Of a stretch of 64,000 nucleotides of DNA, positions 11,517-48,368 are shown one piece after another. How positions within the stretch are numbered: position 1 is the stretch's first letter; the number at the start of each line of letters is the position of its first letter. Made by a program: the position numbers and the translations under genes. Source of the DNA: an uncultured Pseudomonadota bacterium (GTDB lineage Bacteria > Babelota > Babeliae > Babelales > RVW-14); contig CAZGPI010000001.1 of NCBI GenBank assembly GCA_964527595.1, forward strand, positions 81,145-145,144. The letters are read 5' to 3'. The notes below the pieces were generated by a model, which saw only the letters and a list, made by a program, of their open reading frames with translations, was not told the DNA's origin and made no database searches.

Positions 11517-12776
11517 TTAGCGTTCGTCTCGCATTCGACGAGCAAATGCTGCATCATCGGCCACTTGTTTATTCTTCGCATCTTCTGCAGCCTGAAGACT
11601 TCTTGCTAGCGCAAAATCAGCAGACTCCTGTTTCTTTTTTTGAACCAAAGCTGGATTAAGAGTTTCGCACATTTCGCATTTATTATCTTCAGCCTTGTTT
11701 AAAAATGTACAAGCCGGACAGACCCACTTACCATCTACTGGCGCCGTAGCGGCGCTTGCTGCCGGTCGCTTACGAGCTACCTTCACCGGCTGCGTTTCGC
11801 TTGCTCGCGCAGCACCGAAACTTTTTTTGGCACAAATATACGTAAAATCTCGTATCTGGCCACTACGCTTAACCAAAGCAGGATGTATTAAGGGGTATGA
11901 TATTTCTGCATTGTTTCTAATTTCTACCGGAGAAAATCCAGCCGAACGTAACAAAAATTGTGCATAGCGATTAAGATATTCTTCTGATGGAAACCTAAAA
12001 ACTTCCGTTTTTTCGACAGTCTCAGGAATGCCAGAGCAAGCCCCAATCACTTTATAATCGTGGATCAAGTTATTAATATGAAACCTTTCTATAAAAAGTT
12101 TTCCAGAAGCATCGTTTTTTTTATCAAAACCTGGAGAAATAGTTATTGTTTTAAGTCTTCCGTCTATCAACAGTGGCCCAAAGCTTATAGGCCTATCGAT
12201 TGGTTGACTGCCTAAATTTAAATATGTATCGTTACGCGAGCCCGTATAAGTATAAAATTCTCCATCATCTCGAAGAGCACTGCAAATTACCCTTAATTCA
12301 GCCACCGTCCATTCAACATATTTCGTAACAGAGTAATCAAATATAATTCTTTTAAATTTTCCCTTGAGCTTGTTTAAAAAAGTTAAAAAAGATGATGTAT
12401 TAAAATCAAGAGGGACAAGAAATGGGCCTTTTCGTTGGACTAATTTCCCCTCGTCATCTATCTTCAATCTATCTAAAGACACATGCGGAGATACCAAAAA
12501 AGTATAACCCTCAAGTCGTGCTGGGTCTTGATCACCTGCACCAGCACCAAGCACCATTGTTAGATTGTCTTCATCTTTAAACTTTTCCACCAAAGCGTCC
12601 AAATAATTGATTACAAATACCCTATGGCATATTCTTTCATCAAGAGCAGGCTCTCCTTCTCTAGACCATGTTGAGGCAATCGGCCTATCATCAATCATCG
12701 CAGCATTCACCAAGGCCATAGAGCTAATGCCAATTAAGCAAACAAAGCTAAACTTAATTAGAAAATTACTCTTCAC
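11517..12776 (-). CDS. exported protein with C-terminal NZF (RanBP2-type) zinc finger and UIM-like helix; N-terminal domain unknown
   Basis: A GTG start at 12776 is preceded by a strong SD (AAGGAGG), and a signal-like leader follows. WVCPACTFLNKAEDNKCEMC (nt 11667-11726) fits W-x-C-x2-C-x3-N-x6-C-x2-C. The tail reads ESADFALARSLQAAED. VLGAGAGD might be a Rossmann-type loop, but this is a weak call. Confidence 0.65.
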   Translation of the reverse strand: MKSNFLIKFSFVCLIGISSMALVNAAMIDDRPIASTWSREGEPALDERICHRVFVINYLDALVEKFKDEDNLTMVLGAGAGDQDPARLEGYTFLVSPHVSLDRLKIDDEGKLVQRKGPFLVPLDFNTSSFLTFLNKLKGKFKRIIFDYSVTKYVEWTVAELRVICSALRDDGEFYTYTGSRNDTYLNLGSQPIDRPISFGPLLIDGRLKTITISPGFDKKNDASGKLFIERFHINNLIHDYKVIGACSGIPETVEKTEVFRFPSEEYLNRYAQFLLRSAGFSPVEIRNNAEISYPLIHPALVKRSGQIRDFTYICAKKSFGAARASETQPVKVARKRPAASAATAPVDGKWVCPACTFLNKAEDNKCEMCETLNPALVQKKKQESADFALARSLQAAEDAKNKQVADDAAFARRMRDER

Positions 12777-12927: not shown

Positions 12928-14046
12928 ATGAAGAAAAATATATTGGTTACGCTCAGCCTCTTTTTTACTACAATTGCCACAATATATAGCATGGAACAAC
13001 CTCTCCCAATTGTTTACCATCATGAGTACAATATTGTAAAATCACACCTTGTAGGTAAAGTGCTTGGTTTATTAGCGTCACCATTCATTAATAAACTTCA
13101 TCCATTTGATTCAGAAAAATATGGCAAGGTTTATAACAAACTTTGTGAACGTTTTAATCTCAGCGCCAAAGATTTTTACCAACCCTATGACATTGCAAGC
13201 ATTCCAGATGGCTTTGAATTTGATGAATGGTTAGATCGAGAATTAATTGAGTTGAATATACATACCCCTGAATATCTAGCCTCATTACACAATCCGGTCG
13301 TTATTCAAAGTATCGCTGAAGTCCCAGGACTCGCTTGGCTCTCAAACAAAACATTGCAAGAGGTTATCCTTCATCCTATGCGTTTGGCAACAGCTGGGAC
13401 CTATATGGCTTGCACGTTAGCGCTAACTCATCCGCACCATTGGGCCATAAATCTTTCGGGTGGTTATCATCATGCTAAATCAAATAGCGGCAGCGGGTTT
13501 TGTTATTTTGCTGATATACCATATGCCGTAACTAAACTTTGGCAAACTAATCCAAAACTTAGGGTTATGATTATTGACCTTGACGCCCATCAAGGCAACG
13601 GATATGAAGCTTTTTTTAAGTATGATCCACGAATTGCGGTATTTGACGTTTATAATGCCAATCGTTTCCCACGAGACTATTCGGCAGCACAATACATTAG
13701 GTATCGTTATGCACTCACACCGAATATGGATGACCCAATTTCTCAAGAATCATATATGGCTTTATTGCAAATAGAGCTACCTAAAGCTATTAATGAATTT
13801 CGCCCAGAGTTAATAATTTATAATGCAGGTACCGATATTTTTGACGGCGACCCAATTGGCGGAATGCACGTATCGGCTGAGGGCATTAATGAACGAGATC
13901 TTTTTGTTTTTGATCAAGCAGAACAAAAACACATTCCAATTGCCATGATCCTCTCTGGTGGATACACACCAGAGAGCGCTGATATTATAGCGAACTCTAT
14001 AACGGCAATCTTAGGGAAAAAAGCTTTAGAAGAATTTAATAATTAA
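12928..14046 (+). CDS. histone deacetylase-family enzyme (class IV / HDAC11-like) with N-terminal leader
   Basis: Motifs present are LPIVYHHEYNI, KLHPFDSEKYGKV, SGGYHHAKSNSGSGFCYFADI, IIDLDAHQGNG and YNAGTDIFDGDPIGG. The hydrophobic leader is MKKNILVTLSLFFTTIATIYS. Confidence 0.85.
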   Translation: MKKNILVTLSLFFTTIATIYSMEQPLPIVYHHEYNIVKSHLVGKVLGLLASPFINKLHPFDSEKYGKVYNKLCERFNLSAKDFYQPYDIASIPDGFEFDEWLDRELIELNIHTPEYLASLHNPVVIQSIAEVPGLAWLSNKTLQEVILHPMRLATAGTYMACTLALTHPHHWAINLSGGYHHAKSNSGSGFCYFADIPYAVTKLWQTNPKLRVMIIDLDAHQGNGYEAFFKYDPRIAVFDVYNANRFPRDYSAAQYIRYRYALTPNMDDPISQESYMALLQIELPKAINEFRPELIIYNAGTDIFDGDPIGGMHVSAEGINERDLFVFDQAEQKHIPIAMILSGGYTPESADIIANSITAILGKKALEEFNN

Positions 14047-14049
14047 TCG

Positions 14050-14565
14050 TTATCGAATGGGCCAGGGAAAACCCAACAGGCCACCCGCCCATAACAATGG
14101 ATCATCCCCTCTAACTAAACGTTCTACGTTCATCCATTCTCCCATAGCCCACTGCCTACGAAGACGAAGATCGTGACGCGGATATCCAAATTCTTCACGT
14201 TTTGCTAGAAGATCAGTAAAACAATCTCGCCACAAAACTGCAGCGTCCATAAGGTCTTGGTTATTTAGATATTCTACGGCGCGATGGTGAGAAATCTCAT
14301 AAAATTCAATTAAAATTGGGCCAACCATTTCATCATATAAAAAATCAAGAACCTCTCTTTGCCCTGGCCGCGCTTGCTGCACTTGCTGAACGACATTGTT
14401 TATTCTCTCTTGAACTTCCTGAGCAGCCAAAGCAGGATCTTGTTCTGGTGGAAGAACCATGAAACGAAAAACATCCGGAAACATACTAAAACAAGGCGAT
14501 ATTGTTGGTAATAATAATATCGCTAAAACAAACCCAAAATGAACAATTCTTTTCTTTGTAATCAT
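14050..14565 (-). CDS. exported hypothetical protein
   Basis: ATG at 14565 is preceded by GGAGG and followed by a hydrophobic leader. I recognise no domain. It is convergent with the HDAC gene, with a 3-nt gap. Confidence 0.5.
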   Translation of the reverse strand: MITKKRIVHFGFVLAILLLPTISPCFSMFPDVFRFMVLPPEQDPALAAQEVQERINNVVQQVQQARPGQREVLDFLYDEMVGPILIEFYEISHHRAVEYLNNQDLMDAAVLWRDCFTDLLAKREEFGYPRHDLRLRRQWAMGEWMNVERLVRGDDPLLWAGGLLGFPWPIR

Positions 14566-15847: not shown

Positions 15848-16597
15848 TTAATTGATGAGTTCCAATTTTTTAAAAATTAGAGCCCACTCATTCCTCATCT
15901 CATCCGTTAAGCTTGATGATTCTGGTGCTGACAAAAAGAAATTTTTGATATTTTTTTCATTCCATGGCTCTTTAAAATCATCGGTCTTATTCATAACTAC
16001 CAGGGTATAATCAAGTTGAGGATATTTTTCGGTTATAAGATTACGAAGCTGAAGTGCTTCCTGTTTTGTGATGACAGCCCTAAAGAAAAAAAGCTTCTTC
16101 TTTGATTTCAATGCATTACGAAATCGACTTATGCGCCGTTCGTATTTTGCTTTATTTTCATCATAATCTAACAAAAAAACTTGATCGCCCACATCAACTT
16201 TGAAGTCGTGGATGAATTTAATCTTATAAGTCTGATCGATTACTTCGCGATATTTTACCGGAGGCGCAACAAGAACTTCAAGAAAACCCTTAAAATCATC
16301 GCGTATAGCACGATAAATCGATTCATATTCACTAAAACACCAGTCAAATGGGAAGTATGCTCCAGAGAGATTATTCGCTTGAAAGTGTCGCGCGGCTCCA
16401 CAATTAAATCCAAGGCTAATTACAATTTTTTCTTCTTTAAATTCGGATTGGTCATCCCAGCCCTTAGCCGTCCACTCCTCAAATCCTGGTATTGGTTGCT
16501 CAAGTTCTGGCTGCTGAGTTATTTGCCCAAAAGATAAAAATGTATACAAAAAAAATGAGCCCAATAAAACTCTAGGCATCACAAAGTTCCTTTCCAT
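15848..16597 (-). CDS. exported protein resembling the DUF1796 putative papain-like peptidase family
   Basis: ISLGFNCGAARH...YFPFDW...IHDF...KYERRISRF resembles the signature I associate with DUF1796. This rests on recollection only. An alternative ATG at 16579 (MPRVLLG..., preceded by AAAGGAA) gives a cleaner signal peptide. Confidence 0.5.
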   Translation of the reverse strand: MERNFVMPRVLLGSFFLYTFLSFGQITQQPELEQPIPGFEEWTAKGWDDQSEFKEEKIVISLGFNCGAARHFQANNLSGAYFPFDWCFSEYESIYRAIRDDFKGFLEVLVAPPVKYREVIDQTYKIKFIHDFKVDVGDQVFLLDYDENKAKYERRISRFRNALKSKKKLFFFRAVITKQEALQLRNLITEKYPQLDYTLVVMNKTDDFKEPWNEKNIKNFFLSAPESSSLTDEMRNEWALIFKKLELIN

Positions 16598-16629: not shown

Positions 16630-17082
16630 TTACGATAATAGTGGTAATAATAGCGCAACAATATCTTTGTTACCATTTCGCATAGCAATACTATAAGCTC
16701 TCCATACTTGATCATGAGCTTGTGGGCTAAATCCTGGTGCTGCAATAATGGCCTTAACAATTTCAAGATCCTTATAACAAACAGCCAAAATGAGCGCCGT
16801 GGCATCAACCCAGCGATCGCATCCATTTACGTCAGCCCCTTCATCTATAAACCTACAAACAGCGGCAACAAGCCCTTGATAATAAGCATTAAGACGATTT
16901 CTATTCGTTTTTTTAAGAAGCGTTATATCAGAAGGTTTAGCGTGAGCGGCGGCAATTGCCTCAATTAATTGCTGCGCGTTGCAAGCAATTGGCGGCATGT
17001 CTGTCATGGTAAAAATGGTATTGTATTGAACACTTGAGAGAATAACTAAAAACATAAAGGTCAATTTATCATGAATCTTCAT
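16630..17082 (-). CDS. small exported ankyrin-repeat-like protein
   Basis: A leader is followed by FIDEGADVNGCDRWVDATALILAVCYKDLEIVKAIIAAPG, which looks like 1-2 degenerate ANK repeats. Confidence 0.55.
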   Translation of the reverse strand: MKIHDKLTFMFLVILSSVQYNTIFTMTDMPPIACNAQQLIEAIAAAHAKPSDITLLKKTNRNRLNAYYQGLVAAVCRFIDEGADVNGCDRWVDATALILAVCYKDLEIVKAIIAAPGFSPQAHDQVWRAYSIAMRNGNKDIVALLLPLLS

Positions 17083-17257: not shown

Positions 17258-19141
17258 ATGAAAAAATTCACTTTATATTCTCGAATTGTTTTTGCGCAAC
17301 TTCTGGTTGTAACAATGCCCATGGTTGCCATGGAGCAGGCTCAGACACCTGAGGTATCAAGCTCATTGCCCACAACAGATCAAAGCCACCAATATCATTC
17401 TACCTATCTGCCAAAGGCTTCTGCGCTATCGCTTCTATGCAGTGGAAAAATTCTTGCCGACCATGAATTACCACACCAAATGATGGACCGTGTAATTTAT
17501 ACACTGTTTTCAGTCGAAACAAAATTTAACACATCTCCCGCCGAAATAAAGCGTTTAGAATGTGAACTTGGATCACTATTAGATGCTGGCGATTGTGTAA
17601 TGAGTACGCCTATTTTGACCAACGCCGGCAGATACTGCGAAAAGCCTTTATCTGCATGCACAGTCCCTCTAATCGATTTGCGAGAAGATATGTCAAAAAT
17701 TAGGGTAGTTATTGATCGCTTGCATCAAGATGGCATGGGCACCGGATTTAATCTCGATGAATGCGAAGACCCTGTAGCAACCCTAAGACTTCTCAATAAT
17801 ATTGCCGTGCAAGGAGCAAGGAGTGGCAAAGAAGATCGTCCAGTTGGAAACATAGCCGTTCTTTCAGTGGGGCATCCTAAAATTCTCGAATTTATTAATG
17901 CAAAAAATCAAGTCGACACGCTCGGCGAGCAATGGATATTTAACATATCGGTTAACATTGACGATGCTTTCATGGACGCATTTTCGCGTAACACAACATA
18001 TATGTTACGTGATGGGAACGAAGTATTGGCGCAAGAGCTTTTGGGGCAAATGGCCAAAAGCGTATTTATCTGTGGCGATCCTGGTATTGTTTTCATAAAT
18101 CGTCTTAATGAGGGCAATCCAACGCCAGGTGTTGGTGATTATATTGCCGTTGCTCCCTGTGGAGAAGTTGGGCTAGCCGCTGGAGAAAGTTGTCAGTTTG
18201 GTTATATCAACGTAGCAAAATTTCTTAATAAGGGACAAGAGCAATCTCTTGATATTGACTTTGAAAGATTAGCGCAAGCAACACGATTAATGGTAAGAGC
18301 ACTCGACAATGCTTTAGAGTTAAGCATTGACAAATACGCCTGTGAGCAACAAGGAAGTATTATGAGGGCAAAACGCAAGATTGGTATTGGCATCTGCGGA
18401 CTTGCCGATCTTTTCATGCTATGTAATATTTCTTATGCTGATGAACAAGCTAGAAGATTAGCTCAAGATATTGTTGCCTTCATCAATTATACTTCAAAAT
18501 TAGCATCTCATGAACTTTCAATGACAAGAGGCTCATTTGAAGCAATGGCTCTTGGAGAAGGTTGCCGATACAATAATGATCCTGGTTTTATTGAGCAACG
18601 ATTTGGAAAAATTTCAACGCCTCATGTATCCACCGCAATGTGGCATGAATTATCACAAAAAATCAGAGAAACCAAATGCTTACGAAATGCGTCGACTATT
18701 GCATTACCACCAACAGGGAGGAGTTCAATGGTCATCAATGCCTCAGCTGGAATAGAACCACAATTTTCTTTGGTTGAAGCACGCGGGCTTAACCCTATCT
18801 TGGAAAAGGCTCTTACTGATACTGGAATAATTGATCCAAATTTAATAGAAAACATAATGAAACTCGGCCGCATTGGTAAATTATCAGAAATTCCTGCCAG
18901 CATTCGCCATATCTTTTTAACCGCACTGGAGATATCTCCTGCGGATCACCTAGCCATGATGGAAGCGTTACAATTAGTCGTAGACGAATCAATCTCAAAA
19001 ACGGTTAATGTTTCACCAACTATCAGTGAGCCCGAAATTGTTGATATTTTTCATCAAACGTATTTACGAAAACTTAAGGGCATAACCATCTATAGAGATG
19101 GAAGCCGAAACAGTCAGCCTAAAAAGCTTGGGGATAGTTAG
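17258..19141 (+). CDS. nrdJ: class II (B12-dependent-type) ribonucleotide reductase homologue, divergent, with N-terminal hydrophobic leader
   Basis: Motifs present are STPILTNAGR, RPVGNIAVLSVGHPKILEFI, APCGEV...ESCQFGYIN, GIGICGLAD, PPTGRSSMVINASAGIEPQF, ISKTVNV and TIYRDGSR. The SD is AGAGG. See the finding on substitutions. Confidence 0.8.
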   Translation: MKKFTLYSRIVFAQLLVVTMPMVAMEQAQTPEVSSSLPTTDQSHQYHSTYLPKASALSLLCSGKILADHELPHQMMDRVIYTLFSVETKFNTSPAEIKRLECELGSLLDAGDCVMSTPILTNAGRYCEKPLSACTVPLIDLREDMSKIRVVIDRLHQDGMGTGFNLDECEDPVATLRLLNNIAVQGARSGKEDRPVGNIAVLSVGHPKILEFINAKNQVDTLGEQWIFNISVNIDDAFMDAFSRNTTYMLRDGNEVLAQELLGQMAKSVFICGDPGIVFINRLNEGNPTPGVGDYIAVAPCGEVGLAAGESCQFGYINVAKFLNKGQEQSLDIDFERLAQATRLMVRALDNALELSIDKYACEQQGSIMRAKRKIGIGICGLADLFMLCNISYADEQARRLAQDIVAFINYTSKLASHELSMTRGSFEAMALGEGCRYNNDPGFIEQRFGKISTPHVSTAMWHELSQKIRETKCLRNASTIALPPTGRSSMVINASAGIEPQFSLVEARGLNPILEKALTDTGIIDPNLIENIMKLGRIGKLSEIPASIRHIFLTALEISPADHLAMMEALQLVVDESISKTVNVSPTISEPEIVDIFHQTYLRKLKGITIYRDGSRNSQPKKLGDS

Positions 19142-22639: not shown

Positions 22640-23170
22640 ATGTTCAAACGTTTGCATACTGTTATTTTCGTTAGCCTTTTTCTCATCACTACTACACCAA
22701 TAATGATTAATGCTATGCCTTCGGCATCACCGGCGTCATCAAAAGGTGCTGCTGCCTCAATTACAAAGGGCGTATTAAGCGTCATCGTTGCTGGTGGCTT
22801 TAATATGAACACCCAAGATGAAAATGGAAGCTCGCCATTGCATTATGCGGTGCGCACGTCCCCACTTCCTGTTTTTAAAATAATTCTTGAGAGCGGAATT
22901 AACGTCGATCTTATAGATAAAAATGGCCAAACAGCTCTGCATCTTGCTGTAATTGCCAACGAATTAAAAAGGGTTGACGATCTCCTTCGCCATGGAGCTC
23001 GCGTTGACATTAAAGATAACGACGGTAAAGATGCTCTTTATTACAGTCACGGGGAAGTGAGACTCCTTATTCAGCAATATGTTGATGTTTCACCGCACGA
23101 TATTGTTATCACTTTTCCAGAAGATTACCCGCCTATTGCCGACGATTCCCGTGGTTGTATTGTACAATAA
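22640..23170 (+). CDS. exported ankyrin-repeat protein ending in CaaX box (CIVQ)
   Basis: A leader is followed by three ANK repeats (GSSPLHYAV..., GQTALHLAV..., GKDALYYS). The C-terminal four residues are C-I-V-Q (23156-23167). Confidence 0.85.
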   Translation: MFKRLHTVIFVSLFLITTTPIMINAMPSASPASSKGAAASITKGVLSVIVAGGFNMNTQDENGSSPLHYAVRTSPLPVFKIILESGINVDLIDKNGQTALHLAVIANELKRVDDLLRHGARVDIKDNDGKDALYYSHGEVRLLIQQYVDVSPHDIVITFPEDYPPIADDSRGCIVQ

Positions 23171-23177
23171 TTAGTTA

Positions 23178-24338
23178 ATGGGGTTTACAATGTTCAGATT
23201 TTCACGCGCCAACGTTATCAGCACAGCCTTATTCATCATTTCAATGTTGGCTTTTCTAAGTGCAATGGAATCCCAGGATCCAAGAATTCCAGATTATATT
23301 CTTGCCGAAGACAATATGTTTGCTCTGGCGCGTTCTTTTTACCCAGAATTTTGTCCAAAATCAACAATGGTTGATTTTATGCGCATAACAGAATCGCTTG
23401 CCGAAAAATCAACCGCCCTGGCAACAACTGAAGCTCAACGGCTTCTTGCTCGGCTAATCACAAAGCCAGAACAAATTGAACGAGTTGCGCACCCCGCCGA
23501 CCCACAATATGCTCTTGATATTCGCATACATCACCCAGCACTGTTTGCCGCGGCCATTGGAAATGGTTATTTAATTGAGTTTATTGGACTAGAAACAATT
23601 CCGCTTAATAATTTCATCAATCCATATAATGGCCTTTCGGTTTTTCATTATGCTGCTTACTACAATCAACCAGGCATGTCATGGTATCTTGCAACAATAG
23701 ATGCCCTCGAACGAGAAGAACCAATTGACTTAGATATTATGGATGGCCAAAGCAATACTCAACTTCATATCGCCGCAAAACAAGGTCATGCTCATTATGT
23801 GAGGCAAGCGCTGATAACCGGAGCCCGAGCCAATGCGCGTAATGGCACCGGCCAAACACCATTTGCGCTAGCCGCCAATGAAGAAACACGCAACGTTATA
23901 ACTGAACATCTTCAGAGTCTTACGAGTGGCGATCAAAGCAAAAAAAACGCCTTTGCGACAGGAAACACATCTCGAGATATGGCTTTTATTCGCGCAATTG
24001 AAATAAGTGCAACGGACCAGGAAGCGACAATAAAGACAGAAAAGCTCTTGAAACAACACGACCTTAACGTCAACGCTCAGGATATTAATGGGTGCACCGC
24101 TTTACATTTGGCTGCAAAAAAGAATTTTGAATCAACATATCAGTGCCTCCTTAAACGAAAAGATATCAATATTAACGCCCGAGACAATGAAAATCACACA
24201 GCCAAAGACTATGGCCTAGAAGAAACAAGACAAGACGTCGCTACAGGGCTGGTTAACGTACAAACGCAAACAGATCAAGAGACAGACATTCCGCAAATTG
24301 ATGACCTTCAAGAGCTCGTTGTGTGTTCTGTCCAATAG
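23178..24338 (+). CDS. exported ankyrin-repeat protein ending in CaaX box (CSVQ)
   Basis: A leader is followed by ANK repeats (NTQLHIAAKQGHAHYV, GQTPFALAA, GCTALHLAAKKNF). The C-terminal four residues are C-S-V-Q (24324-24335). An alternative ATG lies at 23190. Confidence 0.8.
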   Translation: MGFTMFRFSRANVISTALFIISMLAFLSAMESQDPRIPDYILAEDNMFALARSFYPEFCPKSTMVDFMRITESLAEKSTALATTEAQRLLARLITKPEQIERVAHPADPQYALDIRIHHPALFAAAIGNGYLIEFIGLETIPLNNFINPYNGLSVFHYAAYYNQPGMSWYLATIDALEREEPIDLDIMDGQSNTQLHIAAKQGHAHYVRQALITGARANARNGTGQTPFALAANEETRNVITEHLQSLTSGDQSKKNAFATGNTSRDMAFIRAIEISATDQEATIKTEKLLKQHDLNVNAQDINGCTALHLAAKKNFESTYQCLLKRKDININARDNENHTAKDYGLEETRQDVATGLVNVQTQTDQETDIPQIDDLQELVVCSVQ

Positions 24339-38305: not shown

Positions 38306-38920
38306 ATGATACGCGGACGCTATTTTTTATTCATAGTTTTTTTAGGGTTGAGCAGTGGTTCTATTTTTGCCATGGAGCGTGAAGTTGATTCATTACTCCC
38401 CGTCTACCAAAAACGATTTTGTGGTATTGTTAGCTTTTATTGTGGTGCGAAAGGCCGAATAGCAGTTGCCTCAGCTGAAGTCAAAACAGCAATAGCTGAA
38501 CGCGTAGAATCCTTGCGTGCCAGCATAAAGTTGAATGGGCTTCCAATTAGTGCCTTTGATTTGATTGTTAATCAAAAAGACGGCGAAGGAAGCAGTCTCC
38601 TTTCAAGCTCTTGTTTTTGGGGAAATCTTCCGGTTGTTCAGGCGCTTTTGGCTATCCCTGAAGTATGCGTTACAGAAAAAGATTTAGAAGCTGTACTTGC
38701 CGGCAAAAATGCAGCAATAGGACAACGACGCCTTGGCAAAACCATTAATCATGGCTTAGACAGTGATTATAGAGAAATCATTAAACTATTCATTCAGCAT
38801 AAAAACATTGATGGTTTTTCATTATCTGATGAAGCGCTGATAGCCTTTTCGTTTTTTTGTCCCAACGATTCGGATAAAAATTTTATCGATTCTTGTTATA
38901 GAATTTATCGAAGCAATTAA
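38306..38920 (+). CDS. exported hypothetical protein with degenerate ankyrin-like repeat
   Basis: A leader is present. GSSLLSSSCFWGNLPVVQALLAIPEV resembles one ANK repeat. Confidence 0.45.
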   Translation: MIRGRYFLFIVFLGLSSGSIFAMEREVDSLLPVYQKRFCGIVSFYCGAKGRIAVASAEVKTAIAERVESLRASIKLNGLPISAFDLIVNQKDGEGSSLLSSSCFWGNLPVVQALLAIPEVCVTEKDLEAVLAGKNAAIGQRRLGKTINHGLDSDYREIIKLFIQHKNIDGFSLSDEALIAFSFFCPNDSDKNFIDSCYRIYRSN

Positions 38921-43825: not shown

Positions 43826-44467
43826 ATGAAAAGTTTTTTGCTTTTTATCTTTTTCTGCTGTTGTTTTTTTAATACACATGCATCGCTGAGCACCTTTTTC
43901 AAAGAGTTTGGTCGATTTAATGAAAAAAACAAACAACATCTTGGCGAAGTTTTTGATAATTTCCATTCCGTTGAAGAAGGGCAATTTTATCGCTCTCAAC
44001 AATTATCTCCGCTAGTTCTTGATAAACACATTAAAACAAATGGTATCAAAACGTTGATTTGTTTGCGTGGTGACGGTGATACTGAGTGGTGGAGAAATGA
44101 AAAAGCGGTTGCCGAGCATAATGGCACATTGGTTTTTTCTTTGAGCCTGAGCGCTGTTTACCTAACCACAAAAACCGATCTTATGAAAATATTAACGATT
44201 TTCCAAGAAGCCCCGCGACCAATTCTTGTCCATTGTATTGGTGGCGCCGACCGTACCGGAGAAGTTTCAGCCTTATGGGTTCTTGACCAACAAAAAAAAG
44301 ATAAAAGCGAAGCCCTTAAGCAACTGGCTATAACGTATGGTCATCGAAAATATAAAAATTCGGCTAAAGATTTTTTAATCGAGATTTGGCAGGGACGCGA
44401 CTGGGCCTTTAATGTCTATGACCACAAAAATTATCCATCGCTATGTAACCCTTCAGATTTGCGATAA
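43826..44467 (+). CDS. exported CX5R protein-tyrosine/dual-specificity-type phosphatase (Siw14/OCA, COG2365-like), copy A
   Basis: A signal peptide is present. NFHSVEEGQFYRSQQLSP...GIKTLICLRG is followed by the P-loop VHCIGGADRTGEVSALW. Confidence 0.8.
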   Translation: MKSFLLFIFFCCCFFNTHASLSTFFKEFGRFNEKNKQHLGEVFDNFHSVEEGQFYRSQQLSPLVLDKHIKTNGIKTLICLRGDGDTEWWRNEKAVAEHNGTLVFSLSLSAVYLTTKTDLMKILTIFQEAPRPILVHCIGGADRTGEVSALWVLDQQKKDKSEALKQLAITYGHRKYKNSAKDFLIEIWQGRDWAFNVYDHKNYPSLCNPSDLR

Positions 44468-44520: not shown

Positions 44521-45159
44521 ATGAAAAGGTTTTTGTTTTTAGTATCATTTTGTTGTTGTTTTTCAGCACAGGCATCGCTAAGCAATATCTTCAAAGAACT
44601 TACCCAATTTAATGCAAAAAACAGGCAACATGTTGGCGAAGTTTTTGATAATTTTTATACGGTCGATGAAGGGCAATTTTATCGTTCGCATTTGCTGCCG
44701 CCACAAACGCTTGATAAATATATTAAAAAAATTGGCATTAAAACGGTGTTACATTTGTGCGGGGAATTAGATGGTGAATCGTGTGCCAGCGAAAAAGCGG
44801 TTGCTGAGCAAAATGGCATATTCTTTTTTTCTCTTAGTATGAGTGCTGTTTATCTGACCAATAATACCGACCTTATGAAGGTGCTAACTATTTTCCAGGA
44901 AGCCCCCCGCCCAATTCTTGTACATTGCATGGGTGGTGCTGATCGTACCGGAGAGGTTTCGGCTTTATGGGTTCTTGATCAGCAAAAAAAAGACAAAAGC
45001 GAAGCCTTCAAACAACTGGCTATAACCTATGGTCATCGAAAATATAAAAATTCGGCTAAAGATTTTTTAATTGAGATTTGGCAAGGGCGCGAATGGGCCT
45101 TTAATGTCTATGACCATCGCAATTATCCATCGCTATGCAGACCTTCAGATTTACGATAA
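44521..45159 (+). CDS. exported CX5R phosphatase, copy B (tandem paralogue)
   Basis: The architecture matches copy A, with P-loop VHCMGGADRTGEVSALW. The SD is AAAGGA. The 3' end overlaps the convergent cyclin gene by 37 nt. Confidence 0.8.
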   Translation: MKRFLFLVSFCCCFSAQASLSNIFKELTQFNAKNRQHVGEVFDNFYTVDEGQFYRSHLLPPQTLDKYIKKIGIKTVLHLCGELDGESCASEKAVAEQNGIFFFSLSMSAVYLTNNTDLMKVLTIFQEAPRPILVHCMGGADRTGEVSALWVLDQQKKDKSEAFKQLAITYGHRKYKNSAKDFLIEIWQGREWAFNVYDHRNYPSLCRPSDLR

Positions 45160-45830
45160 AGGTATTTATCGAGGCTAGTAAGATAGATATTGTAGGTACC
45201 TTCGTCGACCGACAATGAAAATTTTATTGCAAAAAGCAACTCAAACTCGAGGCGATTTAGCCCTGCTGTTGATATGCCAAAAATTTTAGCATAATATGCA
45301 TTATCAAAAAATTCGTCCTCTAAAAATTTTGTAGCAATGAGGAGCGCCGTTGCAAATAGTTGATGAATATTCGTTGGCGAAACACGATTGCCGGCCTGAG
45401 CTTGAATATAGCGATCTATGTAGATGAGCGCAAAAATATAGCATGATTCAGAGCATTGCGAGGATTGAACAATCCTAAGCAAGTAGTCTTCAAGGGATAT
45501 ATCAGGAATTTTTCGCAAATCAAAATACGTTAGTTTTTCGGGCAAACCGTTTTTTAGGGATTGTTTGGCAAGTCCATTTAATGCAACAACAATAGCATGT
45601 AATCGGCTTGGTGTTTGCGGGAATTTGCATAACTCAAATTTTGCGTGACGATTGGCATCGCCGCAAGCATCGCAAAGTTTCCCATAAAAGGAATCTTCCA
45701 ATAAGGCGATCGCAGCCACTGGGTTTACGCTAACCGCTGACGCATCACAAGCGTCAGCGGGATTGATCATTGATTGTAGTGTTGTTAAGGATAAGCAAAG
45801 AAAAATTAGTGCTAAGCAACGTTGTAACAT
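45123..45830 (-). CDS. PHO80-like (P/U-type) cyclin-domain protein with N-terminal leader
   Basis: DISLEDYLLRIVQSSQCSESCYIFALIYIDRYIQ...NIHQLFATALLIATKFLEDEFFDNAYYAKIFGISTAGLNRLEFELLFAIKFSLSV follows the PHO80-type cyclin-box consensus closely. The SD AAGAGG lies in the 9-nt gap after the nrdD stop. Confidence 0.85.
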   Translation of the reverse strand: MLQRCLALIFLCLSLTTLQSMINPADACDASAVSVNPVAAIALLEDSFYGKLCDACGDANRHAKFELCKFPQTPSRLHAIVVALNGLAKQSLKNGLPEKLTYFDLRKIPDISLEDYLLRIVQSSQCSESCYIFALIYIDRYIQAQAGNRVSPTNIHQLFATALLIATKFLEDEFFDNAYYAKIFGISTAGLNRLEFELLFAIKFSLSVDEGTYNIYLTSLDKYLYRKSEGLHSDG

Positions 45831-45839
45831 AAGCCTCTT

Positions 45840-47762
45840 TTATAGTGTTGGTTCTTGTGGTAAATCTTGTTGAATTGGCATATGCGTAACTTCTGTAATA
45901 TCGTCTTTGAATATTCGTTTCTTATGTTCTTCTTGGCGTCCGCGGTTCCATGCCGATACCGGAGTAAAGTATCCGATAATACGAGTATAATGTTCTGTTA
46001 TTGGCGCCGCGCAGATTGGGCATGATGGAACGGGTCCAGCAACGGTAATATGACTGTTTTTACATTTACAGAAATTATAGTTTACGGCAAAGTGATCACA
46101 ACCACAGATAATTGCATAATCGATCAATTTTTTCATTTGATCAACCGAGGTTAACTTTTCACCAACATTCAAATGTGAAATGCCACCACCAGTTAAGGCA
46201 CGAGAAAATGTTCCATCAAGTTTTACGCGGTCGACAATATCACAATCAACCCATAATGGAACGAATTGATTAGAGTATATTTTGTACTGCATATTGTAGA
46301 GTAGCTCATCTTTTGCAGCAAATTTAACTGCAAGGCTTTCTGCGGGTACTTGTTCAACGTTGAATGGAACGTTATATTTCTTACTGCATTCTGTTGCATA
46401 GTTTTTTATTGATTCAAGCAAATCATATGCAAGTCGTTTACCCTGCTCGGTCAAGATTGAATAACCAAGTTCTTCGAGACATTCATAAACACCGTTGATA
46501 CCAAAGGTGCTGAATAAGCGGCTCATGGACATAATGTCATATTTAAAGAACGGTAAAAAACCTTCATTTACCCTAAGAGCAAGAAGCTTGCGGTGAGCAT
46601 TTAATGCATCTCTTGATTGATCAAGTTTTACCTTAAGAAGTTCTAATAAATTTTCATATGATGTTGCAAGCTTACCAAGTCTGGCTAGATTTAGGGTAAC
46701 AATGCGATGCGAGCCGAGAGAAATGCCGCCATTACCAAAACTATCACAGCCAGCAAGTTCTAGGTCATTAATGAGGCGGCAGCAACTTGCAATTTTATTT
46801 CCGGAGGATATGTAGATATTAAAACAGGCTTTTTCAAGATTTATTGCAGAAAAGTATTCAAGTGCTTCACGATCTAAGATGTTGCGATTTTCATCAATGC
46901 GCAAATTGAGGGTGACAACGGGAAATCGATAAGGTAAGCCACTTGAAGGATCACCTTTACTAAACCAGTCGCAGAATATTTTTTGAATTTCCATAATGGC
47001 ATCAATGTCTGGTGTTGATCCATCAGGAAAAACGAGTTCACCAAATAGTTGGATTAGGTTTGGTTTATCAAAGATTGATAAGTTGGTAAATGGGGATTGA
47101 TGCGACGGACGAAGTTTTTTGTTTAGTGTGTGAATCAATGACTGAAAATCGTTTTCGATTTCTTTGCGTACTCGAGGATCGCTTAGGTCAAGTTTGTCTC
47201 TTTTTATAAAGTAAGAATAACAAACAAAAAGATCGCCAATAGCAACGGCACCAGCAATTTGTTGGGCCAATTCTATAGTGACTTCTTTTACTTGATCAAT
47301 AAATGATCGTGCGCGATGAGGAGGGAGCGACTTAAGTTGTCCCCAAAAATTTCCGCGATCAAGCAAAAAATATGATGAATATGCCCAGCAATAAGGGACT
47401 TGTATAGCGGTGCTATCATGGAAGTATAGATCACCATTCCACATAGAATGCATAATCTTTTCGGCCTGATCTTCGCCATACTCTTTTGTTAATATTGCAT
47501 GCAAGTCATGATACCCGAGCAGCTTAAAATTACTTTTAGAAACCTCAGAAAGGTAGTTGCCATGAGATCGACCGTCATGCAGATTTGCATTATTATCAAT
47601 TGATATATCGATTAATTGTTCGCCATAATAGCGATCAGACATAAGCGACATATCTAGTTGTTTTTCAGAGATCCCTTCAAATTCAAGGATCCGTGGATTT
47701 GTTTCGGCATATATTTTTTTGAAACTATCTGAAAATTGTGAGTAGTTTTTTAACATTTCCAT
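45840..47762 (-). CDS. nrdD: anaerobic ribonucleoside-triphosphate reductase (class III)
   Basis: The C-terminal Zn ribbon is CKCKN...CPIC. The glycyl-radical motif is RIIGYFTPVSAWNRGRQEE. Length is 640 aa. Confidence 0.93.
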   Translation of the reverse strand: MEMLKNYSQFSDSFKKIYAETNPRILEFEGISEKQLDMSLMSDRYYGEQLIDISIDNNANLHDGRSHGNYLSEVSKSNFKLLGYHDLHAILTKEYGEDQAEKIMHSMWNGDLYFHDSTAIQVPYCWAYSSYFLLDRGNFWGQLKSLPPHRARSFIDQVKEVTIELAQQIAGAVAIGDLFVCYSYFIKRDKLDLSDPRVRKEIENDFQSLIHTLNKKLRPSHQSPFTNLSIFDKPNLIQLFGELVFPDGSTPDIDAIMEIQKIFCDWFSKGDPSSGLPYRFPVVTLNLRIDENRNILDREALEYFSAINLEKACFNIYISSGNKIASCCRLINDLELAGCDSFGNGGISLGSHRIVTLNLARLGKLATSYENLLELLKVKLDQSRDALNAHRKLLALRVNEGFLPFFKYDIMSMSRLFSTFGINGVYECLEELGYSILTEQGKRLAYDLLESIKNYATECSKKYNVPFNVEQVPAESLAVKFAAKDELLYNMQYKIYSNQFVPLWVDCDIVDRVKLDGTFSRALTGGGISHLNVGEKLTSVDQMKKLIDYAIICGCDHFAVNYNFCKCKNSHITVAGPVPSCPICAAPITEHYTRIIGYFTPVSAWNRGRQEEHKKRIFKDDITEVTHMPIQQDLPQEPTL

Positions 47763-48202
47763 TGTCCCGCCTCTTTTTTAAAAACCCTTTGATTTGTTGA
47801 TGCTGGCCACCCGTTGACATGAAGTTCGCTACGGTATTGTCCACAGACAATTAATTGTAAATTTTTGAGTAAATCTTGAGGTAACACTTCAAATTCGCGA
47901 CCGGTGTAAAGCGCTATTTCTTTAGAGCTCGTTGTGGTAACTTTTTCACAAAGAGCCTTGAGAAAATCGATTTGATCAGTTGGTTCGCCACCTAAAAAAA
48001 CTACGGCATCTGCCAATGGATGTTGCTGTATTTTTAGCAAAACATCTTCGATTGGCATAAGGAGCCCATTTTCACGTTCCCATAAATCTTTGTTTTGGCA
48101 ACCAGAACATCTGATGCTGCACCCTGAAAGGTAAATGGCAATTGCTGTTTTGCCTGGGTAGTCGATGAATGACGTGCACATGCGTGCGATGTAACCCTGC
48201 AT
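47750..48202 (-). CDS. nrdG: anaerobic RNR activating protein (radical SAM)
   Basis: The CSIRCSGC (CxxxCxxC) cluster lies near the N-terminus. Length is 150 aa. The stop overlaps the nrdD start by 13 nt. Confidence 0.85.
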   Translation of the reverse strand: MQGYIARMCTSFIDYPGKTAIAIYLSGCSIRCSGCQNKDLWERENGLLMPIEDVLLKIQQHPLADAVVFLGGEPTDQIDFLKALCEKVTTTSSKEIALYTGREFEVLPQDLLKNLQLIVCGQYRSELHVNGWPASTNQRVFKKEAGQWKC

Positions 48203-48368
48203 TGTCCCCCCGTGAGTTTGATGACCCTAATTTTTAACTTGGTATATTTTAGATGAAAAAAGAGTAAGAAGAAAATGATTTTTAAAATTATTCTGTTGGT
48301 ATTTTAGCCAACAATAAAAACAACTAACTTCTTACGCGAAAAGATTAAATATTGTTTATCTAACAAAA

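Follow-up and report, generated by a model that had tools for sequence, protein, structure and literature searches.

A PHO80-type cyclin gene with a predicted export leader beside nrdG-nrdD in a genome assigned to Candidatus Dependentiae

The 64-kb window analysed here, which is the whole stretch of bacterial DNA under study, contains a gene for a 235-aa homologue of the PHO80/P-U-type cyclins, located directly downstream of the anaerobic ribonucleotide reductase (RNR) genes nrdG and nrdD. All coordinates are positions within the window, and the calls refer to its proteins unless another locus is named. Both the assignment of the cyclin domain and the bacterial ownership of the gene are practically certain. 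The reading favoured here, which we consider moderately probable from the sequence evidence, is that the product is a eukaryote-derived, secreted cyclin mimic that would be aimed at a cyclin-dependent kinase (CDK) of the host and might be insensitive to the CDK inhibitor. An RNase P RNA of the bacterial class A and two tRNAs are encoded in the window. Among named relatives, those closest to the window's AspRS come from Candidatus Babeliales/Dependentiae (59-65% identity), and unnamed metagenomic relatives reach up to 85%. These sequence markers place the window in a genome of Candidatus Dependentiae (TM6/Babeliales). The Dependentiae live in protists as obligate intracellular parasites and have genomes of 1-1.5 Mb, and a host-directed mimic is therefore the natural reading of the cyclin. 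The gene and its parts are as follows.

45123..45830, minus strand: cyclin gene, an open reading frame (ORF) with an ATG start, encoding the 235-aa PHO80/P-U-type homologue (secretion predicted)
45771..45830, minus strand: leader, residues 1-20, signal-peptide-like (MLQR / CLALIFLCLSLTT / LQS, then M21)
45213..45548, minus strand: cyclin box, residues 95-206, the PF08613 match, containing K168, D172, N177 and E195 and the altered groove positions Q157 and G190

Cyclin domain, predicted fold and functional residues

Hidden Markov model (HMM) searches against Pfam placed the protein above the cut-offs of both cyclin families, with 95.2 bits for PF08613 (PHO80-like cyclin; cut-off 21, E 6.7e-27, residues 95-206) and 42.6 bits for PF00134 (Cyclin_N; cut-off 23). 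The best sequence matches among solved structures were Pho80 (1.6e-10), Pcl10 (1.5e-8) and cyclin Y (4e-6). An AlphaFold2 (AF2) model was predicted from 21 sequences, with a mean predicted local distance difference test (pLDDT) of 77.6 and a predicted template-modelling (TM) score of 0.74. The pLDDT was 86-97 in most of the cyclin box and 80 at residues 171-180, and residues 1-34 were of low confidence. The model contains helices at residues 113-124, 128-144, 155-169, 177-184 and 188-201, plus two more at 73-93 and 210-228. Foldseek comparison of this model ranked Pho80 first (2pmi_B, E 5.5e-7, TM 0.57/0.62), with Pcl10 at 3e-5 and CCNY at 1e-4; the top group spanned E 5.5e-7 to 2.5e-4 with TM of about 0.55-0.65, and the two-box cyclins A and D gave E values of at least 0.07. 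The predicted structure is a single five-helix box, nearest to Pho80, Pcl10 and cyclin Y rather than to the two-box A/B/D/E cyclins. An earlier, sequence-only reading of this DNA had called a PHO80-type cyclin, and the call is borne out by the Pfam models, the solved structures and the predicted fold together. The peptides it quoted (ISLEDYLLRI, ALIYIDRY, NIHQLFATALLIATKFLEDEFFDNAYYAKIFGIS and LNRLEFELLFAIKFSL) are all present in the translation of 45123-45830. Its statement that the consensus is followed almost residue for residue was overstated, since the identity to eukaryotic boxes, such as those of plants, Closterium, Diphylleia and Perkinsus, is about 40-48%.

Residue conservation was measured over 164 eukaryotic homologues, whose alignment has 36 columns with a conservation of at least 80%. 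Of these, 30 are retained in the window protein and 23-29 in its three bacterial orthologues (loci L003, L004 and L012, described below); in the remaining columns, only about 17-28% of the positions in the bacterial copies agree with the eukaryotic majority. K168, D172, N177, E195 and Y137/D139/R140 are invariant in all four bacterial copies, and K168, D172 and E195 are also 99-100% conserved among the eukaryotic sequences. By alignment, K168 and D172 are the equivalents of the α3 residues K132 and D136 of Pho80, and E195 is the α5 Glu. The equivalent α3 Asp in Pcl10 and N. crassa PCL-1 forms a salt bridge with Arg132 of Pho85 and the neighbouring arginines, and it replaces T-loop phosphorylation in the Pho85 complexes (PMC9815767). 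As these core CDK-contact residues are kept despite the high divergence of the proteins, the sequences indicate that the bacterial cyclin retains the predicted CDK-facing surface under purifying selection. Two other substitutions, G184F and D171E, are common to all four bacterial copies, at positions where the eukaryotic consensus is 93% and 88%, respectively.

The groove for the inhibitor is different. Q157 and G190 align with R121 and E154 of Pho80, which form a salt bridge in the groove where Pho81, the CDK inhibitor, binds with its minimum domain; in the pho80 alleles R121K and E154V this bridge is ablated, the binding of Pho81 is destabilised and the kinase stays constitutively active (PMC10511240). 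Among the 164 eukaryotic homologues, R fills the first of these columns and E the second at 99% each. The bacterial pairs are Q/G in the window, R/E in L003, Y/K in L004 and K/E in L012, and hence the R-E bridge, which is a regulatory and not a fold-defining feature, is lost in three of the four copies. The window protein shows four radical departures from the eukaryotic consensus, two of them at this very pair. Together with the conserved contact residues, the replacement of the pair suggests that the regulatory docking site has been lost and CDK binding kept; tentatively, the cyclin might thus still bind a CDK and escape its inhibitor ('inhibitor-blind').

The nrdG-nrdD-cyclin locus and its orthologues

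The surroundings of the cyclin gene comprise the following features.

45831..45839, minus strand: nrdD-cyclin spacer AAGAGGCTT, 9 nt, with a Shine-Dalgarno (SD)-like AAGAGG at 45834-45839
45840..47762, minus strand: nrdD, anaerobic ribonucleoside-triphosphate reductase (PF13597 E 1.4e-87; NF006127 606 bits, cut-off 545)
47750..48202, minus strand: nrdG, radical-SAM activase, overlapping nrdD by 13 nt
48203..48368, minus strand: ABC-F/nrdG intergenic region, conserved, with the palindrome TGTTGG-N8-CCAACA at 48293-48314
45123..45159, both strands: convergent 3' overlap of the cyclin gene and phosphatase gene 2, 37 nt

The order nrdG > nrdD > cyclin, as well as the details of its junctions, had been described correctly in the sequence-only reading. 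The cyclin ATG lies 9 nt after the nrdD stop (...CTA TAA AAGAGGCTT ATG), where AAGAGG is followed by a 3-nt spacer, and the 3' end overlaps the convergent phosphatase gene by 37 nt. A terminator scan found no terminator-like site after nrdD or in this overlap. The nrdD-cyclin adjacency recurs in three other contigs. L003, a contig of a metagenome-assembled genome (MAG), contains HtrA, a hypothetical protein, ABC-F, nrdG, nrdD and the cyclin with a 5-nt gap; L004 contains nrdD and the cyclin (P0016) with a 23-nt gap; and L012 contains HtrA, HD, ABC-F, nrdG, nrdD, the cyclin (P0018) and ComM, with an 84-nt gap between nrdD and the cyclin. The two genes are on the same strand in all four genomes. 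The genes 3' of the cyclin differ between the window, L003 and L012, and the nrdD-cyclin link persists. The junction sequence is not conserved among the loci: the AAGAGG is specific to the window genome, and the gaps of L003 and L004 are without such a motif. GAGG at -7 also precedes other window genes, and an SD-like 4-mer was found for 31 of 55 ORFs.

The gaps of 9, 5 and 23 nt are too small for a promoter, which makes co-transcription the parsimonious reading; the cyclin is likely to be transcribed together with nrdGD. Its promoter might lie in the ABC-F/nrdG intergenic region, where the mean column identity over the window, L003 and L012 is 89%, although the encoded proteins are only 76-90% identical. 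This region contains the invariant palindrome followed by a T-rich tract, and it gave a terminator-like hit (48203-48368). By its sequence it is probably the terminator of ABC-F and/or the operator/promoter region of the nrdG-nrdD-cyclin unit. The palindrome is unlike the NrdR box. Alternatively, the cyclin could have its own promoter independent of nrdGD, the adjacency being merely inherited order. The 84-nt gap of L012 could house such a promoter, nrdD itself contains, about 240 nt upstream, a pair of promoter-like hexamers at 46101-46074 (10/12 sigma-70-like match), and synteny by descent is expected among four close relatives. However, the other three gaps are short, no terminator-like site follows nrdD, the promoter-like hits in the region (12) do not exceed the shuffle expectation (15.3 +/- 4.7), and the link to nrdD persists while the downstream genes vary. 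A separate promoter is consequently given a low probability. A functional link between deoxynucleoside triphosphate (dNTP) supply and the cyclin, for which the adjacency in closely related genomes is the evidence, is doubtful. As the simplest alternative, an acquired gene that lacked a promoter may have been captured at the tail of an expressed operon.

Relatives were sought with HMMER in 1.84 billion representatives. Of the 7,719 hits, P0016 and P0018 were the only ones aligning over the full length including the leader. P0019 was a third bacterial hit and stands for the orthologue of L003, whose gene call is shortened there. Apart from these three, all hits that were named or screened were eukaryotic; the named ones include proteins of Perkinsus, Diphylleia and Closterium and the plant cyclins U/P. 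The hydrophobic stretch near the N-terminus of these eukaryotic relatives belongs to the N-terminal helix of the cyclin itself and is not a leader. Pattern scans found one locus in the GTDB genomes (185,579 species genomes), one further bacterial locus in metagenomes, and no viral relatives in the IMG/VR contigs. A synteny walk from AspRS in more distant relatives did not reach the cyclin locus, as the gene order breaks right after AspRS. These scans depend on the patterns used, and absence elsewhere is thus not proven by them.

The cyclin is also much less conserved than its surroundings. The four cyclins share 34-45% identity, compared with 82-90% for nrdD, 77-83% for nrdG, 76-88% for ABC-F and 78-81% for HtrA. 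The cyclin evolves 5-9 times faster than the genes around it. The contrast of fast divergence with conserved neighbours likely marks the cyclin as a gene in an arms race with the host. Its C-terminal tail is not conserved among the orthologues. The gene is intronless, and its GC content at third codon positions (GC3, 0.339) equals that of the neighbouring genes, which indicates that the acquisition is old and fully ameliorated.

A neighbour-joining (NJ) tree of 168 cyclin boxes was reconstructed, in which the four bacterial copies cluster only together with the long-branch sequence P0079. Strict monophyly of the four bacterial cyclins was recovered in only 89 of 200 NJ bootstraps. The nearest named relatives are eukaryotic, in line with a transfer from eukaryotes to bacteria. 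The synteny and the shared G184F and D171E argue for a single acquisition. No donor lineage could be named, because the nearest named relatives are scattered across Perkinsus, Diphylleia, Closterium and land plants.

Two side observations concern the orthologous loci. L003 (CAZLQB010000020.1) belongs to a MAG titled 'uncultured Pseudomonadota bacterium'; its HtrA, ABC-F, nrdG and nrdD are 79-90% identical to those of the window, and this label is probably wrong. The cyclin of L004 (P0016, 1356-2219) is extended at its C-terminus by 50 aa rich in Pro, Gln and Thr, with HWCCKRFC as the last residues. The Cys-rich end recalls the prenylation/palmitoylation motifs of eukaryotes, and it is not a canonical CaaX box.

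Predicted export and possible action on a host kinase

The N-terminus (MLQRCLALIFLCLSLTTLQS before the Met) contains a 13-residue hydrophobic core with a Kyte-Doolittle value of 2.9. The core is short, it follows a basic residue, and a small residue stands before the invariant Met; the same type of leader was found in all four orthologues. The leader ends with LQS in the window and with LQA, IYA or GYT in the others, and L8, F10, T17 and M21 are invariant in the four. Judging from its length, the hydrophobic region is too short to serve as a membrane anchor. Residues 1-20 are therefore signal-peptide-like, of the Sec type, with a predicted cleavage before M21. The export leader claimed earlier is in agreement with this conservation, by a heuristic call and as predicted export. 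Two other interpretations were rejected. A lipoprotein reading of 'ADAC' fails as the D at -2 is incompatible with a lipobox, and M21 is unlikely to be the true start, since the frame before it stays open and codes for hydrophobic residues in each of the four orthologues (chance of about 1% by a rough estimate).

Possible export routes are described for the phylum. In Chromulinavorax, 44% of the coding sequences have signal peptides, the putative effectors were inferred to go via Sec, and outer-membrane vesicles (OMVs) were seen (PMC6561590); the core gene set of the TM6 genomes includes a type II secretion system (T2SS), with gspD in two copies (PMC4776705). Hydrophobic N-termini were found in 29 of 55 long window ORFs, including the RING, NZF, ankyrin and histone deacetylase (HDAC) proteins. 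In addition, at least nine window leaders end in a small residue followed by Met (IYS, CFS, IFT, MVA, INA, LSA, IFA, NAA and LQS before the Met). The ORFs with such leaders are 12928-14046, 14050-14565, 16630-17082, 17258-19141, 22640-23170, 23178-24338, 38306-38920 and 11517-12776, together with the cyclin leader at 45771-45830, and the three cyclin orthologues elsewhere show the same kind of end. This pattern could reflect a cleavage preference of the lineage, a leader grafted before an ancestral start Met, or dual initiation.

In the proposed mechanism, a transcript starting in the conserved region before nrdG would cover both nrdGD and the cyclin gene, and ribosomes might reinitiate 9 nt past the nrdD stop to translate the cyclin. 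The leader would carry the protein via Sec, and the exit from the cell could be by the T2SS or by OMVs. In the host, the single cyclin box might bind a Pho85/CDK5/PCTAIRE-type or CDKA-type kinase through its α3/α5 face (K168, D172 and E195). With the Pho81-recruiting R-E bridge destroyed (Q157 and G190), the complex would escape the host inhibitor. A nutrient/phosphate-sensing or G1/S kinase could thus be locked 'on' or mis-targeted, to the benefit of the parasite. The most far-reaching version of this reading would make the protein the first bacterial cyclin, an uninhibitable activator of a host Pho85/CDK5-like kinase that is made in step with the parasite's RNR operon and forces the nutrient/phosphate signalling or G1/S state of the host to deliver nucleotides at the time of the parasite's DNA replication; as a whole, this version is speculative and rather unlikely.

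Several points weigh against the secreted, inhibitor-insensitive mimic. The L003 copy still has the R and E of the Pho81 groove. Pho81-type inhibitors are documented in fungi, and the groove may act differently in protists. The high divergence could come partly from relaxed constraint, and the modest bootstrap value of the bacterial clade and the long spacer and hexamer pair bearing on co-transcription belong on the same side.

The protein might instead be a decoy or retargeting cyclin, which sequesters the host CDK from the host's cyclins or substrates, and so, for instance, blocks the cell cycle or derepresses starvation or autophagy programmes, instead of activating it constitutively. Conservation is seen in the residues that face the CDK, while some 75-80% of the remaining columns depart from the majority of the eukaryotic sequences, the bacteria-specific segment 22-72 means that substrate-docking surfaces may be lost or altered, and the fast evolution is effector-like. 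However, the invariant K168, D172 and E195 fit an activating geometry, and losing the inhibitor groove would be of consequence only in an active complex; such a decoy is thus considered unlikely. A bacterial function of the cyclin fold, in the periplasm or envelope or with a Hanks-type kinase, was also considered, because leaders occur in about half of the window ORFs and are by themselves weak evidence for an effector, and because the gene sits in a housekeeping operon. Nevertheless, neither a bacterial CDK nor a periplasmic partner kinase is known, the kept residues are the eukaryotic CDK-contact set, the occurrence of the gene is limited to a small clade within an obligately intracellular phylum, with a single hit in the pattern scan of 185,579 species genomes, and its rate of evolution is typical of host-interaction genes, which makes this repurposing very unlikely. 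Finally, an assembly chimera, contamination with eukaryotic DNA or a functionless, decaying leftover of a horizontal transfer, as the eukaryotic nearest homologues and the divergent orthologues might suggest, has a negligible chance, since two independent SRA assemblies contain the identical window gene with the same nrdD-cyclin junctions, orthologues occupy the same position in three more assemblies (which together rule out chimera and contamination), all four ORFs are intact with conserved core residues, and the window gene has a GC3 matching its genome, a bacterial leader and an SD. The eukaryote-derived secreted mimic remains the preferred reading.

Neighbouring genes and comparison with known systems

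Two phosphatase genes face the cyclin gene.

44521..45159, plus strand: dual-specificity/protein-tyrosine phosphatase (DSP/PTP)-like paralogue 2, Cys-based (HCxxGxxRTG), predicted to be secreted (PF13350 27.3, cut-off 22.2)
43826..44467, plus strand: DSP/PTP-like phosphatase paralogue 1, predicted to be secreted (ORF and domain matches)

These tandem paralogues are convergent with the cyclin gene, carry signal peptides, and share the motif VHC(I/M)GGADRTGE and a conserved C-terminus; they match the DSP/PTP families weakly, and their best PDB match was SsoPTP (E 0.009). For paralogue 2, PF13350 is the only Pfam family above its cut-off, and no close relative was found. A link to the PHO pathway via Siw14/PFA-DSP-like phosphatases was rejected, because Y_phosphatase2 scored 22.6 against a cut-off of 27 and the PDB matches were only generic CX5R matches with E of at least 0.009. 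Moreover, the phosphatases are absent from the orthologous loci, which suggests that the two are probably effectors independent of the cyclin.

Other window genes encode further candidates. The ORF at 17258-19141 (+) is a divergent class II (B12-dependent, NrdJ-like) RNR (TIGR02504 343 bits, cut-off 400) with a signal-peptide-like leader and a low-complexity linker of about 45 aa. The leader is odd for an RNR, and nrdDG are present in this genome as well; the protein reads APCGE, where the class II family is expected to read NPCGE. A CNT-family concentrative nucleoside transporter is encoded at 54728-55960 (+; PF07662 E 1e-70), which fits nucleoside scavenging beside the RNR genes. The protein of 60016-60723 (-) combines a leader (MKKILLVALFSFLSFGFS...) with a C-terminal eukaryotic-type RING finger (zf-RING_5 E 1.2e-8), and is a candidate secreted E3 mimic. 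That of 53034-54497 (-) has a leader and an NZF-type zinc finger (TRABID NZF match, E 4.4e-4), and its Cys...His motifs (LCGYYAL ... GGHWLAAAL) suggest a papain-like hydrolase. The ORF at 11517-12776 (-) encodes a leader and a RanBP2/NZF-type finger (PF00641 E 9.8e-9); NZF domains bind ubiquitin in eukaryotes. Further leader-bearing candidates for an interaction with eukaryotes are an HDAC-domain protein (PF00850 E 2e-49), three proteins with ankyrin repeats and a papain-like peptidase (DUF1796), the ORFs of this group being 12928-14046 (+), 16630-17082 (-), 22640-23170 (+), 23178-24338 (+) and 15848-16597 (-).

The closest known systems are Pho80 and Pcl10 (PDB 2pk9/2pmi and 4krc/4krd), the plant cyclins U/P and the animal cyclin Y, which belong to the same family PF08613 and likewise have a single box with N- and C-terminal helices. 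The bacterial cyclin differs from Pho80 and Pcl10 in its Sec-type leader, in the bacteria-specific, Cys-containing segment 22-72, and in the replaced R121/E154 bridge; the bacterial copies as a group differ from the PHO80-like eukaryotic cyclins in the shared G184F and D171E and in evolving much faster than their genomic neighbours. The giant viruses offer a parallel, in that a cyclin was captured from the host by an intracellular parasite, as would be the case here. The best fold match in BFVD was a Sylvanvirus protein (E 6.7e-8, 28% identity), followed by those of Megaviridae, Bodo saltans virus and mimivirus (L268b). However, the viral cyclins are synthesised in the cytoplasm of the host and require no signal for export, whereas the bacterial cyclin has a predicted leader. 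The gammaherpesvirus v-cyclins are D-type rather than PHO80-type and matched weakly (BFVD E 0.46-1.2). Their complexes with CDK6 resist CDK inhibitors, which parallels the groove loss predicted for the bacterial cyclin.

Among bacterial factors, the cyclomodulins (Cif, CDT, CNF and others) and the eukaryotic-like effectors known from amoeba-associated bacteria (Legionella, Chlamydiae, and Dependentiae with ankyrin, F-box and RING proteins) are host-directed and often acquired from eukaryotes, like the proposed cyclin. None of the cyclomodulins has been described as a cyclin homologue, and a cyclomodulin review does not mention a cyclin homologue or mimic; moreover, delivery here would be by Sec/T2SS or OMVs, not by a type III or type IV secretion system. 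Literature searches on PF08613 in bacteria, on cyclins in Dependentiae and on cyclin domains among eukaryotic-like effectors found no report.

In the literature searched, no bacterial cyclin with an export signal has been reported; viruses carry captured cyclins, and bacteria act on the cell cycle with toxins and enzymes. If the protein binds a host CDK, it would add a new class to the cyclomodulins. The P-type cyclins of protists are little understood, and a natural 'inhibitor-blind' P-type cyclin, if the reading is true, would be useful for dissecting Pho85/CDK5-type signalling in these hosts. It would also provide a concrete, testable effector for the Dependentiae, an almost uncultured phylum.

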